A stretch of 64,000 nt of DNA from an uncultured Gemmatimonadales bacterium (GCA_963793305.1 CAWBZV010000005.1:1248001-1312000), one strand, 5' to 3'; shown: positions 19,677 through 24,862, counted from the first letter of the stretch. Notes: generated by a model not told the origin, from the sequence alone. Program-made: numbers and translations.

Positions 19677-19718
19677 TCGTCGGCGTTCGACTGGCACCCC
19701 GAGCGTGGGTGCCAGTCG

Positions 19719-20540
19719 CTACGGCCGCTGCGCCGGCCGGATCAGCGGACACGAGAGTCGCGGGAATTCGATGCGGAGCAGGAGCTCCGGCCGGGCAAAT
19801 GAGTTGATCTTCAACAGCGTCGTTTCCGCCGAGCAGATCGAATTGATGGCGGTGAACGACACGCTGTCCTCGTGCCGGATCCAGTTCGGTGGAACGACCG
19901 TCTTCTCGGCGTCCACGTACGCGCGGAACTTCTCCTCGATGGACGTGAACGGAGCCGGGTTCGTCGTCCGGCATTCATACACCTGGGGGCGCGTCACGGA
20001 AAACCGCGTCAATGTGCATTCGTCGCGTGCCGTGAGCGACAGGCTCGTTCGGTACGGCGTAGGGGACCATGGCGGTGCCACCCCGTCTCCCATGACCACC
20101 GGCCAAAAATCGCGCCCATCCACTTCGTGATAGAGGCTATCCAGGTCATGGGCCCACCGGTGTACGTCTCGCTCGCGCGCGAGGTTGACGCTATCAGGGA
20201 CCGTTGGGGCGGGTGGTGGGGGCGGCACATGCGTCGGGACGCCCAGGATCGCGATGATCGCAAGGCTCATGATCGCGAGAATGACTAGGAAATCGCGTCC
20301 CGATTTCCGCGGTGCTTGGATCGCCACGATCACCAGGGCGATGATCGAGACCAGCACCACGAGGATGAGCAGAGGCGCTTTCGCTGGCATGGCGATGGCG
20401 ATAACGATCACGACGAGCGCGAGCACGATGATGCCGGCGAAGGGCGGAACCCCGCCAGGAGGCATCCGACGGACGGCCTCGGTCAGCAGACCGAGGAACG
20501 CCCGCACAATGGTCGTGTTCGGATCGCCGCCGCCACTCAT
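19719..20540 (-). CDS. Hypothetical membrane protein (several TM segments, Pro linker, Cys-containing soluble domain)
   Basis: Hydrophobic segments, PPPPPAP linker, GGA-rich RBS. Confidence 0.65.
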   Translation of the reverse strand: MSGGGDPNTTIVRAFLGLLTEAVRRMPPGGVPPFAGIIVLALVVIVIAIAMPAKAPLLILVVLVSIIALVIVAIQAPRKSGRDFLVILAIMSLAIIAILGVPTHVPPPPPAPTVPDSVNLARERDVHRWAHDLDSLYHEVDGRDFWPVVMGDGVAPPWSPTPYRTSLSLTARDECTLTRFSVTRPQVYECRTTNPAPFTSIEEKFRAYVDAEKTVVPPNWIRHEDSVSFTAINSICSAETTLLKINSFARPELLLRIEFPRLSCPLIRPAQRP

Positions 20541-20756
20541 GTCGTCCGTCCCGGTCAGTCACCCCGGCGTCGCGGGACGGGCAGGCGACGAGCGCCGCTC
20601 GACACACGACTTCGGGTTGGGTCACTCGAACGGCAATCCAAGGCGGCTTCTCGGGGACGGCCGAATCGAACAGTGTTTGTTTTGTCCGTACCACAGCTAG
20701 GCCCGTTGTGATCTAGCCGTGATCCATTAAGACAGTCTAACACTGCACGGTGTGAC

Positions 20757-20792
20757 TGAACAGGCACATTGAACAGGCACATTTCTGACAGC
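20757..20792. repeat. Tandem 13-bp repeat plus left copy of the 21-bp motif
   Basis: TGAACAGGCACAT twice (20757-20782); AACAGGCA-CAT-TTCTGACAGC at 20772-20792. Confidence 0.75.
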
Positions 20793-20881
20793 ACGTGGTA
20801 TTTACGCGACAAACGGTCGCGAGTTTATCCAGTGCGTCAACTACAAGTAACGATTGTGGTTGTTTGACAAGTACTGTCTTA

Positions 20882-22261
20882 TTACACGACAGTATGCATG
20901 TCGAGTCTGCTCAACATATCGCGGTCGGACCGAGACGGAAAGGCGCTATCGCCAACTGAGCTCGTAAGGGTCCGCGACTGATGTCGCAGAGTGAGAATGA
21001 CATGCTCGATCTCTTCGACCGCTGCCGGCAGAACCGCCGGTGGCGTGCGCGGCTCTTTCTTAGTCAGGCCCAGAGCCGCTAGCCCTTCCTCCGCCTCACG
21101 GAGGTGCCTCGCCAAACCGAACCGGCGCGCCAGGCGGGCCGCTCGCTGGAATGTGAGCCGCGCGAACTCGGGTGCCTCAAAGGCGCCGTACCCCTCGGCC
21201 ACTTCAATCAGGTTTTCGACCCGCAGCGACGCGGGCATGGGACATCGCGCTAGGGTCACGCGGAACGCATCGAACGTCTCGCGATCGCCATCCGCGACGG
21301 CGATCATGATGATGTTGTTCCCGCACGCCCACTTGTTCGCTCGATCGGTCGCTGAAAAGAATGCGGCCTGGCAGGCGCGACGGGCCGCGACGCGCCGACC
21401 GAGACGGAACAGCGAGCGTCCTAGATCATTGAGGGCACGGCTTCGCTGTTCCCGCTGCGTGTAATTGTGCAGGGCGGTGCCGAGGTATTCGATCGCGGTG
21501 CAGAAGTCGGCATCCTGTTGCGAGACGAGACCCATCTGATGCGCGACGACGCCGCGATTGTGGGCCGCGAGCGCGCGGAGGTCCGGAGAGCCGATGACGT
21601 CCGGCCGGGCCAACACGTCGTCGAGTATCGCGCGCGCGGTCTCCAGACGGTGATTGACCTGATATAGCCGCGCCTGCGCGATGAGCAGCAACAATTCGGT
21701 GCGTCGGTCGCCAAAGAGCGCCGCCGCCGCCAGCCCGGTGTGATACGCGCGAATGCCCAACGACAGGTGCCCGAGCTCCCGGAAACAACTCCCCAACCGA
21801 AGGTGCGCATGCGGAATCCTATCGCGGAGACCGGCATTCCGTGCCGCCTCGATCACGAGCTCATAGACGTTCGCGGCGGGCCCGAACTCTCCGGTCTGCT
21901 CCAGACGAGCCGCGTACTCGGAGAGGGCGTCCACCACGACCCCCGCCACCGGACTGCCTACGACAATGCCATCCAGAATCTTGCCCAGACACGCGCGGGT
22001 CGCGGCGGGTCGCACCGCCCGGATGGCGTGGCGGACTTTGAGGAACGCGCGGTCGCCGAACGCCGCGCGCCGCTCACGGGAGAGCGCGGCGTCGGCCATC
22101 TCGAGCACCAGGGCGCCCGCCCAGTAGCGTTGCCACCGTGCGGAACCGACGCGCGACTGACGCAACGCGACCGCGAACGCTTCGTGGCGGGTGTCGCGAC
22201 TTTCTGTTGGGAGCGTAATGTGATGCAAGTGTTGAGACACAGGAGGCCCGGGCGTGTACAC
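20882..22261 (-). CDS. Cytoplasmic TPR-repeat protein (start uncertain)
   Basis: TPR-like helices AHLRLGSCFRELG, AAHNRGVVAHQMG, ALNDLGRSLFRLG; no signal peptide. Confidence 0.75.
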   Translation of the reverse strand: MYTPGPPVSQHLHHITLPTESRDTRHEAFAVALRQSRVGSARWQRYWAGALVLEMADAALSRERRAAFGDRAFLKVRHAIRAVRPAATRACLGKILDGIVVGSPVAGVVVDALSEYAARLEQTGEFGPAANVYELVIEAARNAGLRDRIPHAHLRLGSCFRELGHLSLGIRAYHTGLAAAALFGDRRTELLLLIAQARLYQVNHRLETARAILDDVLARPDVIGSPDLRALAAHNRGVVAHQMGLVSQQDADFCTAIEYLGTALHNYTQREQRSRALNDLGRSLFRLGRRVAARRACQAAFFSATDRANKWACGNNIIMIAVADGDRETFDAFRVTLARCPMPASLRVENLIEVAEGYGAFEAPEFARLTFQRAARLARRFGLARHLREAEEGLAALGLTKKEPRTPPAVLPAAVEEIEHVILTLRHQSRTLTSSVGDSAFPSRSDRDMLSRLDMHTVV

Positions 22262-22263
22262 CG

Positions 22264-22292
22264 TGTATACGCTGTGGTCGAAGTCCAGTCAA
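22264..22292 (-). promoter_or_regulatory. Candidate promoter of the TPR gene
   Basis: TTGACT-N17-TATACA on the minus strand, overlapped by imperfect palindrome CGTGTACA-CCG-TGTATACG. Confidence 0.45.
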
Positions 22293-22332
22293 CCGGTGTG
22301 GAAACATCTTCGCCTCGCTCGCACCGCCGCCA

Positions 22333-22362
22333 GTCGGCGGCAGCCCAACGGCCACCGCCGAC
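22333..22362 (-). terminator. GC-rich hairpin immediately after the peptide gene
   Basis: GTCGGCGG..CCGCCGAC stem extended by G-U pairs; no U-tract, so it may be a stabiliser or processing hairpin. Confidence 0.5.
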
Positions 22363-22370
22363 CTCGTGGC

Positions 22371-22514
22371 CTAGCAGGGCGAGTTCGTCGTGCCAGCCCC
22401 CGACGAGCTGCCACCGCCGCAATCGCTGCGCACCGGAGACGTGGGTGTCGTGCACGCGACCATGAGAGTCGATGCGAGCGCGATGGCGATGAGGACCTTC
22501 AGACGCACGATCAT
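22371..22514 (-). CDS. 47-aa lipoprotein-like peptide MIVRLKVLIAIALASTLMVACTTPTSPVRSDCGGGSSSGAGTTNSPC
   Basis: Translated by hand (below the ORF-track cutoff); RBS GAGGTG; basic n-region, hydrophobic h-region, lipobox MVA-C21. Confidence 0.8.
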   Translation of the reverse strand: MIVRLKVLIAIALASTLMVACTTPTSPVRSDCGGGSSSGAGTTNSPC

Positions 22515-22697
22515 GGAGCACCTCGACAAAAGTGGATGTGAGTGTTCCTACATCCCTCATGTCGATCGGCCCGCCGCTACTACTGATCGAGTCGCGCCCT
22601 CGTGGCGCTCGATGCCGAATTGCAGGGGGCATCGAATGTCATGTCACGACTGGCCGTTCCGCTCCGCCTGTCGCGTCATCATCTTGCCTGCGCAATG

Positions 22698-22728
22698 GCT
22701 GTCAGAATCATGCCTGTTTCTGTCAGAA
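22698..22728. promoter_or_regulatory. 9-12-9 direct repeat; right (inverted) copy of the 21-bp motif
   Basis: CTGTCAGAA (22699-22707), 12-bp spacer, CTGTCAGAA (22720-22728). Confidence 0.65.
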
Positions 22729-22745
22729 AACTGCCCGAATCAACG

Positions 22746-23532
22746 TCACGTCGTCGCGAGCTTTCGCCTCGCCATCGGTCGCGCGAACGCCATCGCCGGG
22801 TTGTGCTGCTTGCCCTCGAGAATCTTCCGATAGTAAGGCGTAGCCGCCGTCGGATCCCCTGATCGCTCGTAAGCCATGGCGAGCAGGCACAGAATAAATG
22901 GATCGCGCTGATCCGCCTGACCCAGATCCGCGATCGCGGTCTTAAAGTCGCCCGTGTACAAGGCGACATACCCGGTGAGATACGGGAAGAATCGCTTCTG
23001 GTCCGGGTTCGTGCCCTTGTCCAAGAATGGCCTTGGCCGCGGCCACATGGGTCCGTGCATCAGGGGCGTTGCCACGCCGGGCCGCAATACGCGCCTGCGC
23101 GTGCTCCCATCGGAAATCCCAGAGATCTTTGGACGTGTCGCTGAGATTCGGCTGCTTGAGCGCGAGCTCGTGACCCGTCCGGTACGTCGTGAGCGCGTCG
23201 TTCAAGTCGCCGCACTCGAGCAACAGGCGCCCGAGCTCATTGGACACGTCGGCGGCGCCATTGTAGTCCTTGCTCGCCACCCTCGGGTCGATCACCTGGT
23301 GCTCGTACCGGCTGATGTCCCGCGTATCACAGGTGAACGCGTACGAGATCGCCAGGCTGCGCCGCGCCGGCGTCTTCGCCGAGTCGGTCGGCGCCTTCTC
23401 GATGGCCTGTGACAGCTTCGCCCGTGCCTCGGCGTAATGGCCGTCCAGATCCAGCGCCGCGCCTTGCGCGATCAGAGACGTCGAGTCGGGCGCTTGCACC
23501 AGTGCCAGTGCCAGCAAAGCGGTCGCAATCAT
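22746..23532 (-). CDS. Secreted TPR-like protein (one extra base at 23023-23024)
   Basis: Signal peptide MIATALLALALVQ; deleting one base joins ..AAAKAIL to DKGTNPDQKRFFPYLTGYVALY (262 codons). Confidence 0.75.
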
Positions 23533-23544
23533 AGAATACACCCC

Positions 23545-24862
23545 ATGAGAAACGTTCTGGTCGTTGCACTCATTCTGGGTTGTGGCCACCCATCTACGCA
23601 AGCCGCGCCCGCCCGAGCAGATGTTCAGAATGGGTCTGGTCCGCGACCCGAAGCTGGCGGCCGCCCTCGGCGACATCTCGGCCGCCAGGATCCGCGCGAC
23701 GGACTCGACGCTCGCCGCGTTCGGTACCCGCCACGCGATGAGCGACACGGTCTCGTCGACCCGCGGGGTCGGCGCGGCCCGGCGCTGGATCTTCTCGACG
23801 CTGTCCAGCTATTCGTCCGACTGCGGCGGCTGCCTGCGCATCGAGTACGACCCGGCCATGGTCACCATCCAACGCGACCCGCAAAAGCGCAGCGTCAATA
23901 TCGTCAACGTGCTCGCCTGGCTTCCGGGGCGCGACACCAACCGCGTGATCGTCATGGGCGGGCACTACGACTCGTGCCGGTGCTCGATGGACTCGTTCGA
24001 TGGGGTCAACGATGCCCCCGGCGCCGATGACGATGGCACCGGCTCGTCCGCCGTCATCGAGCTGGCCCGCGTGTTCTCGCACCGCTACCCGCACGGCCTG
24101 GACGCCACGATCATCTTCGCGCTCTACTCCGGCGAAGAATTGGGACTCCTCGGCTCGACACACCTGGCGGAACGTCTCCACAAATCGGGCTATCATGTCG
24201 TCGCGGGCATGACCGATGACATCGACGGCAACGTCGTGGCCGAGGATGGCAAAGTCGACTCGACCTCGGTAAGAATTTTCGCCGCAGACCCCGATAATAG
24301 TCCAAGCCGCGAGCTCGGTCGCTATGTGTGGGCGCTGGACGCGATCTATGAGCCCAATTTTATCGCGCTGCCCGTCTACCGCGTCGATCGTATTCATCGC
24401 GGCGGCGACCACATGCCGTTCGTCGGCGCCGGCGACGCGGGACTTCGGTTCACCGAGCGCCTGGAGAACTACACACGCCAGCACCTGCCGACCGACGACT
24501 TCGCCCACGTGAACTTCGGCTACACCTCACGCGTCGCCATACTCAACGGCGCGACGGTTGGCTCGCTCGCCGCGGCGCCGGCGACACCGGATAGCGTCGT
24601 TGCCACACGCGACGCAGCGGGCGGCGGCCAAAATTGGAAGATCACCTGGAAGCCGGTGGCAGGCGCGGCCCGCTATGAAGTGCTGTTGCGCACGACGACG
24701 GCCGCGACGTACGAGCGCGTGCTCGATGCCGGCGCGGGTCCACCGTTCGCGCTCAACGAGCAACTCGATGATCTCTGGGCGGGTGTTCGCGCCGTGGGAC
24801 CTGACGGCGCGCGGTCACTCACCGCGACGATTCCACCTCCAGTCCCACTGGTAACGCGCTAA
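23545..24862 (+). CDS. M28 family metallopeptidase, probable lipoprotein (one extra base near 23608-23610)
   Basis: GGHYDS, GADDDGTG, GEELGL, GGDH; signal MRNVLVVALILGC lies in the adjacent frame (439 codons when corrected). Confidence 0.88.

Follow-up and report, generated by a model that had tools for sequence, protein, structure and literature searches.

Results

A lipopeptide gene and a TPR protein gene on a 3-kb island

The window analysed is the whole stretch of 64,000 nt from an uncultured Gemmatimonadales bacterium (genome G000). It contains a gene for a 47-aa peptide and a gene for a TPR protein, which lie 130 bp apart and are co-oriented (Table 1). The first-pass annotation had described the 47-aa ORF with its GAGGTG site, a lipobox at C21, the pair C32/C47 and a hairpin behind the ORF, and all of these were confirmed in the sequence; C21, C32 and C47 are the cysteines of the translation. 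The gene had also been said to be missing from the ORF track. It is not uncalled everywhere, since NCBI, Logan and ENA already list the peptide among their called proteins. NCBIfam gave no name for either the peptide or the TPR protein, and no sigma-70 promoter was found directly 5' of the peptide gene. Sites of the GAGG/GGAG type precede most peptide genes of the family. Hairpins comparable with that of the window were also observed 3' of the peptide gene at the two nearest co-oriented loci (z -3.2 and -4.0), and the window hairpin may stabilise the transcript or act as a partial stop.

Table 1. Features of the cassette and its island (coordinates of the window)
Position	Strand	Feature	Remarks
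19680..22749	.	Island, 3.07 kb	Between two conserved flanking genes; holds peptide, TPR, boxes and cargo
19719..20540	-	273-aa protein with hydrophobic membrane-type N-terminus	Without family
20757-20782		Tandem duplication, 13 bp	Overlaps second operator box
20774..20811	-	Second operator-like repeat	15.7 bits; in sense to downstream membrane gene
20882..22240	-	Cytoplasmic all-helical TPR protein, 452 aa; candidate receptor/anti-activator	Model, fold searches, orthologue start
22331..22362	-	GC-rich hairpin, 14 bp, in the peptide-TPR intergenic region	z -2.3, without U-tract
22371..22514	-	Lipopeptide precursor gene, 47 aa	Signal 1-20, lipobox Cys21, T-S-P linker to Pro27, variable core
22374..22421	-	Predicted active core C32-C47, putative disulfide ring	Cys conservation
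22519..22524	-	Ribosome-binding site GAGGTG	4 nt 5' of peptide ATG
22700..22737	+	Operator-like direct repeat, TGTCAGAA x2, 21 bp apart	19.0 bits; points away from cassette

The full ORF of the TPR gene spans positions 20882-22261 (459 aa). The GTG at 22261 was rejected as start in favour of the GTG at 22240, which is likelier because the 76% orthologue P0003 starts there and the exact 452-aa sequence is on record. An 89% orthologue of the peptide, P0158, keeps all three cysteines. For P0158 as well as for P0003, ENA lists a contig 4526 bp long, which suggests that the pair is conserved together. No close orthologue of the TPR protein was found in five other genomes of the genus, where the best matches reached 28-36%.

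The genes that flank the island are adjacent in genome G005 and have an unrelated gene between them in G001. No regulator gene is present on the island, and the repeats listed included no evident terminal or attachment-like ones at its ends. A perfect 12-bp inverted repeat (19688-19718), located between the converging flank gene and the membrane protein gene, is a likely terminator at the left island edge. On the opposite side, a secreted TPR-protein gene (22746-23570, minus strand) is split by one frameshift near 22990, either a sequencing error or the mark of a pseudogene; its G001 orthologue is intact.

The two best matches of the 64-kb window to the operator-like repeat described below are the pair that flanks the cassette. 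Both boxes point outward, one at the membrane gene and the other at the island edge. The 22700 box, which lies 12 bp inside this edge and is among the G000 boxes above 16 bits, is perhaps aimed at a gene left behind outside the island. No other own-genus peptide region tested carried a box as strong as those at the window locus. The 13-bp duplication separates the second box from a TAGACT -10-like word (placed by eye). The membrane gene is likely to be regulated cargo and a probable local target of the system; it had no family or atlas match, and two weak homologues were found in 81 genomes.

The TPR protein has a peptide-binding-type fold

The structure model of the TPR protein was all-helical (pLDDT 90.5), with an N-terminal helical part followed by a TPR superhelix, and neither an HTH nor a signal peptide was seen in the protein. 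Its own Pfam TPR matches were all below cut-off (the homologues P0016 and P0143 pass TPR_12) and the TPR assignment was thus taken from the model and the fold searches. The top fold matches were LGN/GPSM2 complexes (Z 25.4, rmsd 4.1, 291 aligned residues). NprR (5dbk) was matched with Z 22.7 (rmsd 5.5, 294 aligned), the Rap proteins with Z 19.6-22.2 (20.9-22.2 for those of phages and plasmids, among them Rap-phi105 22.2 and Rap-pLS20 21.8; RapH 21.6) and MalT domain III with Z 21.1. The comparison with Rap and NprR that the earlier annotation had called for therefore bears out its expectation of a peptide-binding-type TPR fold without an HTH, with LGN scoring higher than either.

Since the best matches are the eukaryotic LGN structures, the fold may be that of a generic TPR protein, and the structural Z for the Raps is similar to that for unrelated TPRs. 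The alignments with Rap-pLS20 and RapH begin at model residues 35-37 and hence include the N-terminal helices; helices 34-93 align with the Rap N-termini in whole-chain superposition only, at rmsd 5.6-7. Rap-pLS20 was also found by the family profile with E 1.4e-6, below many generic TPRs. An hhalign comparison with one Rap, for which the TPR protein of phi105 was used, gave a probability of 0.9% and detected no homology.

Conservation was assessed in 107 aligned rows of the family, where D272 is kept in 96%, R303 in 89% and N309 in 85%. These belong to a set of conserved polar residues in the later repeats (H227, R229, R268, D272, R303, W304 and N309), all of which are kept by the window protein except at position 303 (K303). 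Asparagines in the helices (HNRG, NDLG, GNN) had been likened to those through which RRNPP receptors grip their peptides. This stands for the conserved N309, but the family residue at HNRG is D/E (59%/28%) and the conserved residue at NDLG is D272. RapF anchors its peptide through Asn227, Arg223 and Asp194, according to the portion of PMC3601957 available, and the make-up of the conserved residues is similar to these anchors when compared by residue type. The window protein departs from the family at R47, W52, D124 and Y343, and for this reason it may be drifting. A co-fold of the TPR protein (residues 14-420) and the peptide (residues 18-47) scored 0.02 (mark 0.32), which is evidence neither way.

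One member of the family, P0143, is fused to an ECF sigma factor, an alternative output. With this fused homologue, and being itself devoid of a signal peptide, the TPR protein is a candidate for a cytoplasmic receptor. A separate subgroup (C5:1498940 and C10:147828 of G000, P0016, P0026 and P0037) carries an N-terminal Cys/His-rich extension with the motif DAAKCCNG; it looks metal-binding and is without a peptide where the flanks are visible.

Small lipopeptide genes accompany the TPR family

With G000 counted in both sets, the TPR family was present in 23 of 31 relatives (E <= 1e-15) and, across the phylum, in 61 of 151 genomes (E <= 1e-40); the atlas clusters of the family were mostly from Gemmatimonadota. 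It is mostly single-copy outside the genus of the window, with 7-28 matches per genome inside. Three weak Janthinobacterium matches had no peptide, regulator or box; two queries against viral contigs found no relatives, a metagenome scan gave one weak match only, and a word-index protein search returned 3 proteins. The source of a further member, P0054, is given as Vicinamibacterales, so that either the family does extend outside the phylum or the sequence was binned wrongly.

The flanks of 73 distinct full-length members (score >= 100 and a minimum of 330 profile columns; taken as the best-scoring matches and not as a random draw) were scanned for short lipobox ORFs, as the earlier annotation had advised. 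A small signal-bearing ORF was present within 250 bp of the TPR gene in 58 of them, versus 13 of 400 ordinary genes (drawn from 911) that passed the same filter. The 47-aa peptide as a chance ORF was rejected on these figures. One spurious peptide candidate, at L015, was removed by hand. Outside the genus the pairing was found at 39 of 40 loci, the miss being at a contig end, and inside it at 19 of 33; for the other 14 own-genus receptors no peptide was found, and one of these loci (L037) had too little upstream DNA. The small ORF is thus conserved, both in the orthologue P0158 and as paralogous lipopeptides at further family loci, and a conserved small-peptide/TPR pair does exist in Gemmatimonadota. 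Two unpublished genomes, G012 (= L003) and G075 (= L069), are inside the genome, locus and peptide counts, although no claim depends on them, and were excluded from the operator training set and from alignments A2-A4.

The usual layout comprises convergent peptide and TPR genes together with an AraC gene. Variants were observed at L095, L097 and L101, with two AraC-type genes around one TPR or an AraC-TPR tandem without peptide.

The peptides combine a constant signal with a variable core

The alignment revealed a common plan consisting of a signal peptide, a lipobox Cys, a short linker to Pro and a variable Gly/Ser-rich core, in precursors of 38-81 aa. In the 55 distinct peptides, the lipobox pattern was present in all (partly because it is built into the filter), the linker in 53, and at least two cysteines after the lipobox in 39; the cores of some clades are without Cys. 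C21 and P27 are invariant in 38 selected aligned peptides, and C32 and C47 are kept in at least 90% of these 38 rows, which were selected for Cys class. Orthologous peptides differ by 12 synonymous versus 3 non-synonymous codons in the pair L066/L067 and by 4 versus 0 in L008/L010; such variation, mainly at third codon positions, is expected of a translated gene.

In five cases (L020, L062, L080, L096 and C12:36721) the core, and not the signal peptide, is tandemly repeated 2-3 times; tandemly duplicated pheromones are also known for Phr (PMC11343458, part of the text). At L007 the lipobox Cys is replaced by Tyr and an Ala-x-Ala stands in the linker's place, while the core differs little from the one at L008, a single case which suggests that whatever follows the linker is the product. 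Among 88 large lipoproteins of G000, 19 have the T[AGS]P linker as well, so that it need not be a cleavage site. The analogy with enterococcal pheromones, which would have made the signal peptide the messenger, did not hold, and a signal-peptide-derived pheromone was rejected: the tandem repeats are in the C-terminal core, and L007 keeps this core while it loses the lipobox Cys. Judging from these sequences, the ligand is likely to be the variable, often Cys-bridged C-terminal core.

The peptide at C3:1065044 of G000 shares signal and linker with its orthologues at L024/L025, the cores being different. Peptide-receptor co-variation, another check that had been proposed, gave a Spearman coefficient of 0.30 between core identity and receptor identity and of 0.16 for the signal. 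The correlation is weak and, since kin share both core and receptor, it does not show co-evolution.

The lipid anchor also bears on whether the peptide leaves the cell at all. It is odd for a diffusible signal, and all 55 peptides have the lipobox (with the bias of the filter noted above). The lipopeptide could instead remain in the cell as part of an autonomous envelope monitor, in which the TPR protein would sense unexported precursor or its fragments, report on lipoprotein maturation or disulfide formation and control the AraC regulator. The Cys pair would suit such a redox or export read-out, and no import through two membranes would be required. This reading leaves unexplained the lineage-specific cores, their tandem repeats and the at least 10 different cores in a single genome, and some clades have cores without Cys; we regard it as unlikely.

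A receiver-like/AraC regulator and a direct repeat complete the usual cassette

A regulator of ~260 aa is encoded beyond the peptide gene, and divergent from it, at 38 of 40 loci outside the genus, the misses being at contig ends. A receiver-domain gene lies next to it in 28 of the 69 loci compared. Its C-terminus is an AraC HTH (HTH_18). For the N-terminus no fold match was obtained at E <= 0.001; the NtrX REC domain was matched at E 0.014 with rmsd 2.4 over 113 residues, and the regulator profile showed weak similarity when set against one receiver protein. The Asp of a DP motif is kept in the regulator consensus, where no acidic pair or conserved Lys was seen, which indicates that the domain is probably a pseudo-receiver. 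A protein-protein output, as in Rap, had been anticipated from the lack of an HTH in the TPR protein; it is likely, and this regulator is the candidate partner.

G000 has six close AraC paralogues, five of them at TPR loci. The sixth, at C4:145070, adjoins a gene resembling the one usually found upstream; this locus has neither TPR nor peptide and looks like an ancestral site. A gene for a binding protein of the Opp/Dpp type (SBP_bac_5) was found upstream of the TPR gene at L085 and L094; in G000, the orthologue of this gene is the first of an ABC operon. A transporter of this type is plausibly the import route, a candidacy suggested by gene position and short of proof. An Opp/Dpp-type ABC operon of G000 (C2:167918-173320) has a distant AraC paralogue 1.7 kb away.

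A direct repeat, TGTCnCAAAA with 21-bp spacing, was located 85-148 bp before the canonical peptide start codon. The repeat pair had a median score of 30 bits at spacing 21 in 37 training loci (L054 being a weak one), versus <=14.4 at other spacings. Seven further named Gemmatimonadaceae loci, all close kin of training loci, contain TPR, peptide, regulator and operator in every case (7/7). Words enriched 3' of the repeat, TTTACG and TAGCTT, resemble -35/-10 elements (positions by eye). A second box above 12 bits precedes the TPR gene at 5 of 36 loci, with none in antisense or distant controls. From its position and spacing, the repeat is the putative binding site of the AraC protein.

In G000, 12 boxes exceeded 16 bits, compared with 3 in the reversed-genome control. 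Strong boxes precede unlinked genes at C5:675121, C2:12530 (duplicated at C1:17726), C2:865358, C5:1615850, C3:931655 and C2:797613, and the genes behind them include those of a secreted 299-aa protein and a 1042-aa protein. Other top boxes of the genome are found ~70-250 bp ahead of genes in the sense orientation, a pattern suggestive of a small regulon.

Paralogous cassettes in the source genome

The genome G000 contains 22 TPR-family loci, 17 full-length and 5 split or truncated. An intact paralogous lipopeptide gene adjoins ten of them, nine being convergent and the window copy co-oriented upstream, and a regulator adjoins five. Three of the ten intact peptides (C3:78816, C9:55553 and C12:36721) are also near a regulator. 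Linked decay of TPR and peptide was seen twice: a split TPR gene is next to a peptide gene without stop at C3:1065044 and next to a peptide without ring Cys at C3:593168. A third split TPR gene, on C9, has kept an intact peptide. A profile built from the ten peptides gave one further strong match in 110,015 segments, the orphan C3:753798, which is without TPR in G000; the corresponding G005 locus retains the TPR.

If the peptide were simply a small structural lipoprotein under the AraC activator, and the TPR protein sensed another ligand and did not bind it, the linkage of the two genes could stem from shared control: the operator precedes the peptide gene, and TPR-regulator pairs without peptide exist (the L027/L028 clade and L097). 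The peptide, however, goes with the TPR and not with the regulator, as the three of ten intact G000 pairs that are also near a regulator illustrate, and the pairing persists through the change from convergent to co-oriented layout. We hold mere co-regulation to be quite improbable.

The expansion of paralogues in the genus (7-28 matches per genome), the fast diversification of the cores, the orphan TPRs and the position on a variable island would also be expected of a toxin/immunity or kin-recognition system, with the peptide as a surface or secreted antagonist and a TPR protein that protects the producer or discriminates kin. Against this, the cores are short, Gly/Ser-rich and non-cationic, other genera typically have a single copy with regulator and operator, and the orphan peptide C3:753798 occurs without a TPR in G000. 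Such a function is very unlikely in our judgement.

The window copy is a derived module

In a quick tree, the window TPR formed a clade with L032, L033, L034 and L037 (support 99). L032 and L033 have the co-oriented layout and hairpin of the window locus, and no peptide was found at L034 and L037. Because most cassettes have convergent genes and an AraC gene, the co-oriented pair of the window is a derived form. The copy is thus a derived module on a 3-kb island without its own regulator, and it would act on an AraC paralogue elsewhere in G000.

Its missing regulator, the outward boxes, the 13-bp duplication by the second box and the long branch (0.94) could alternatively mean that the system is real and this copy a decaying, non-functional island, in a genome where 5 of 22 family loci are split or truncated. 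Yet both ORFs are intact, the orthologous pair is found elsewhere (TPR 76%, peptide 89%), and H227, R229, R268, D272, W304 and N309 are kept, which makes decay highly improbable.

Discussion

The preferred reading, to which we assign a probability of roughly 0.6, is a Rap/Phr-like circuit in a diderm, where a re-imported peptide switches a TPR protein that controls an AraC-type activator. What the analysis shows is the gene coupling, the folds, the motif and the variability of the core; from these we infer the biochemical steps. The receiver-like/AraC activator would bind the 21-bp repeat and turn on the peptide gene; at some loci its targets would further include the TPR gene and unlinked genes. 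Sec would export the precursor, which would receive its lipid at Cys21 and be closed by oxidation to the C32-C47 ring, and a cut after the invariant Pro27 would free a core of ~16-20 residues. This core would re-enter cells, plausibly via the Opp/Dpp-type transporter, bind the TPR groove on the side of D272, R303 and N309 and alter the grip of the TPR protein on the activator. The most likely outcome would be release of anti-activation and, thereby, positive feedback.

Points against the circuit include the cytoplasm, where a disulfide ring would probably be reduced, and the window locus itself, which has no regulator beside it and whose two boxes do not face the peptide gene.

A wider reading, for which we would give slightly less than even odds, is a phylum-wide form of peptide communication through cytoplasmic receptors, independent of RRNPPA. 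A lipid-anchored precursor would give rise to a pheromone closed by a disulfide; having crossed both membranes, this pheromone would switch the TPR protein, an anti-activator whose target is a kinase-independent receiver/AraC regulator. In one genus, more than 10 parallel mobile dialects per genome would have cargo genes plugged into the regulon via their own boxes. To our knowledge, regulation in Gemmatimonadota has been little studied. With a counterpart in a diderm phylum (61 of 151 sampled genomes), TPR-receptor signalling would reach beyond the outer-membrane divide and would gain a new type of precursor, namely a lipoprotein whose core is cyclic. The circuit is directly testable, since ligand candidates, receptor, regulator and operator sequence are named, and many orthogonal peptide-receptor pairs in one genome could supply synthetic signalling parts.

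TPR-receptor peptide signalling is described as a feature of Bacillota in the available parts of PMC10075063 and PMC9765709. A full-text literature search covering listings and abstract beginnings, with few subscription journals and no supplements, found no description of the present system, and the main texts of PMC10075063 and PMC12700828 contain no 'Gemmatimon'. The cassette was compared with the five RRNPP/RRNPPA criteria as given in the accessible text of PMC10075063. The propeptide (47 aa, range 10-100 aa), the receptor length (452 aa, range 250-500 aa), the TPRs (by model and fold search) and the adjacency of receptor and propeptide genes (130 bp) agree with four of them. In place of the strict Sec/SPI signal there is a lipobox Cys (SPII, judged by sequence pattern), which fits the relaxed level of that source. 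As to the Bacillota host trait, the relatives of the cassette are named Gemmatimonadaceae. The RRNPP-like cassette in a diderm that had been postulated is upheld in its architecture; owing to the diderm host, the lipoprotein precursor and the unproven homology we keep it apart from RRNPPA.

With Rap-Phr the cassette shares an adjacent small exported propeptide with a variable C-terminal core and sometimes tandem repeats, a cytoplasmic TPR protein of ~400 aa without HTH, and a response-regulator-like partner, RapF and RapC being anti-activators of ComA. Phr is a linear 5-7-mer, in contrast with the often Cys-bridged core of 10-16 residues found here. The cassette further differs in its diderm host, its SPII lipoprotein precursor, its usually convergent genes and its partner, a receiver-like/AraC protein encoded in the cassette itself. 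Orphan receptors occur in both systems (PMC9765709, in the part available). The conserved Arg and Asn are six apart in the cassette TPR (R303, N309) and four apart in RapF (Arg223, Asn227; PMC3601957, available portion).

NprR-NprX resembles the cassette in the TPR superhelix and the adjacent propeptide, but NprR has its own HTH, whereas none is visible in the cassette TPR. The lipoprotein precursor is shared with the enterococcal PrgX-type pheromones. An enterococcal pheromone is the signal peptide of a large lipoprotein and is sensed by PrgX-type receptors; in the cassette, by contrast, the whole gene is small (38-81 aa) and the C-terminal core carries repeats and specificity. The closest structures to the cassette TPR are those of LGN/GPSM2/Pins and MalT domain III, and the LGN entries are complexes with partner peptides. 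LGN is a eukaryotic polarity adaptor and MalT domain III part of a STAND activator, both without the dedicated propeptide gene that accompanies the TPR protein in the cassette.
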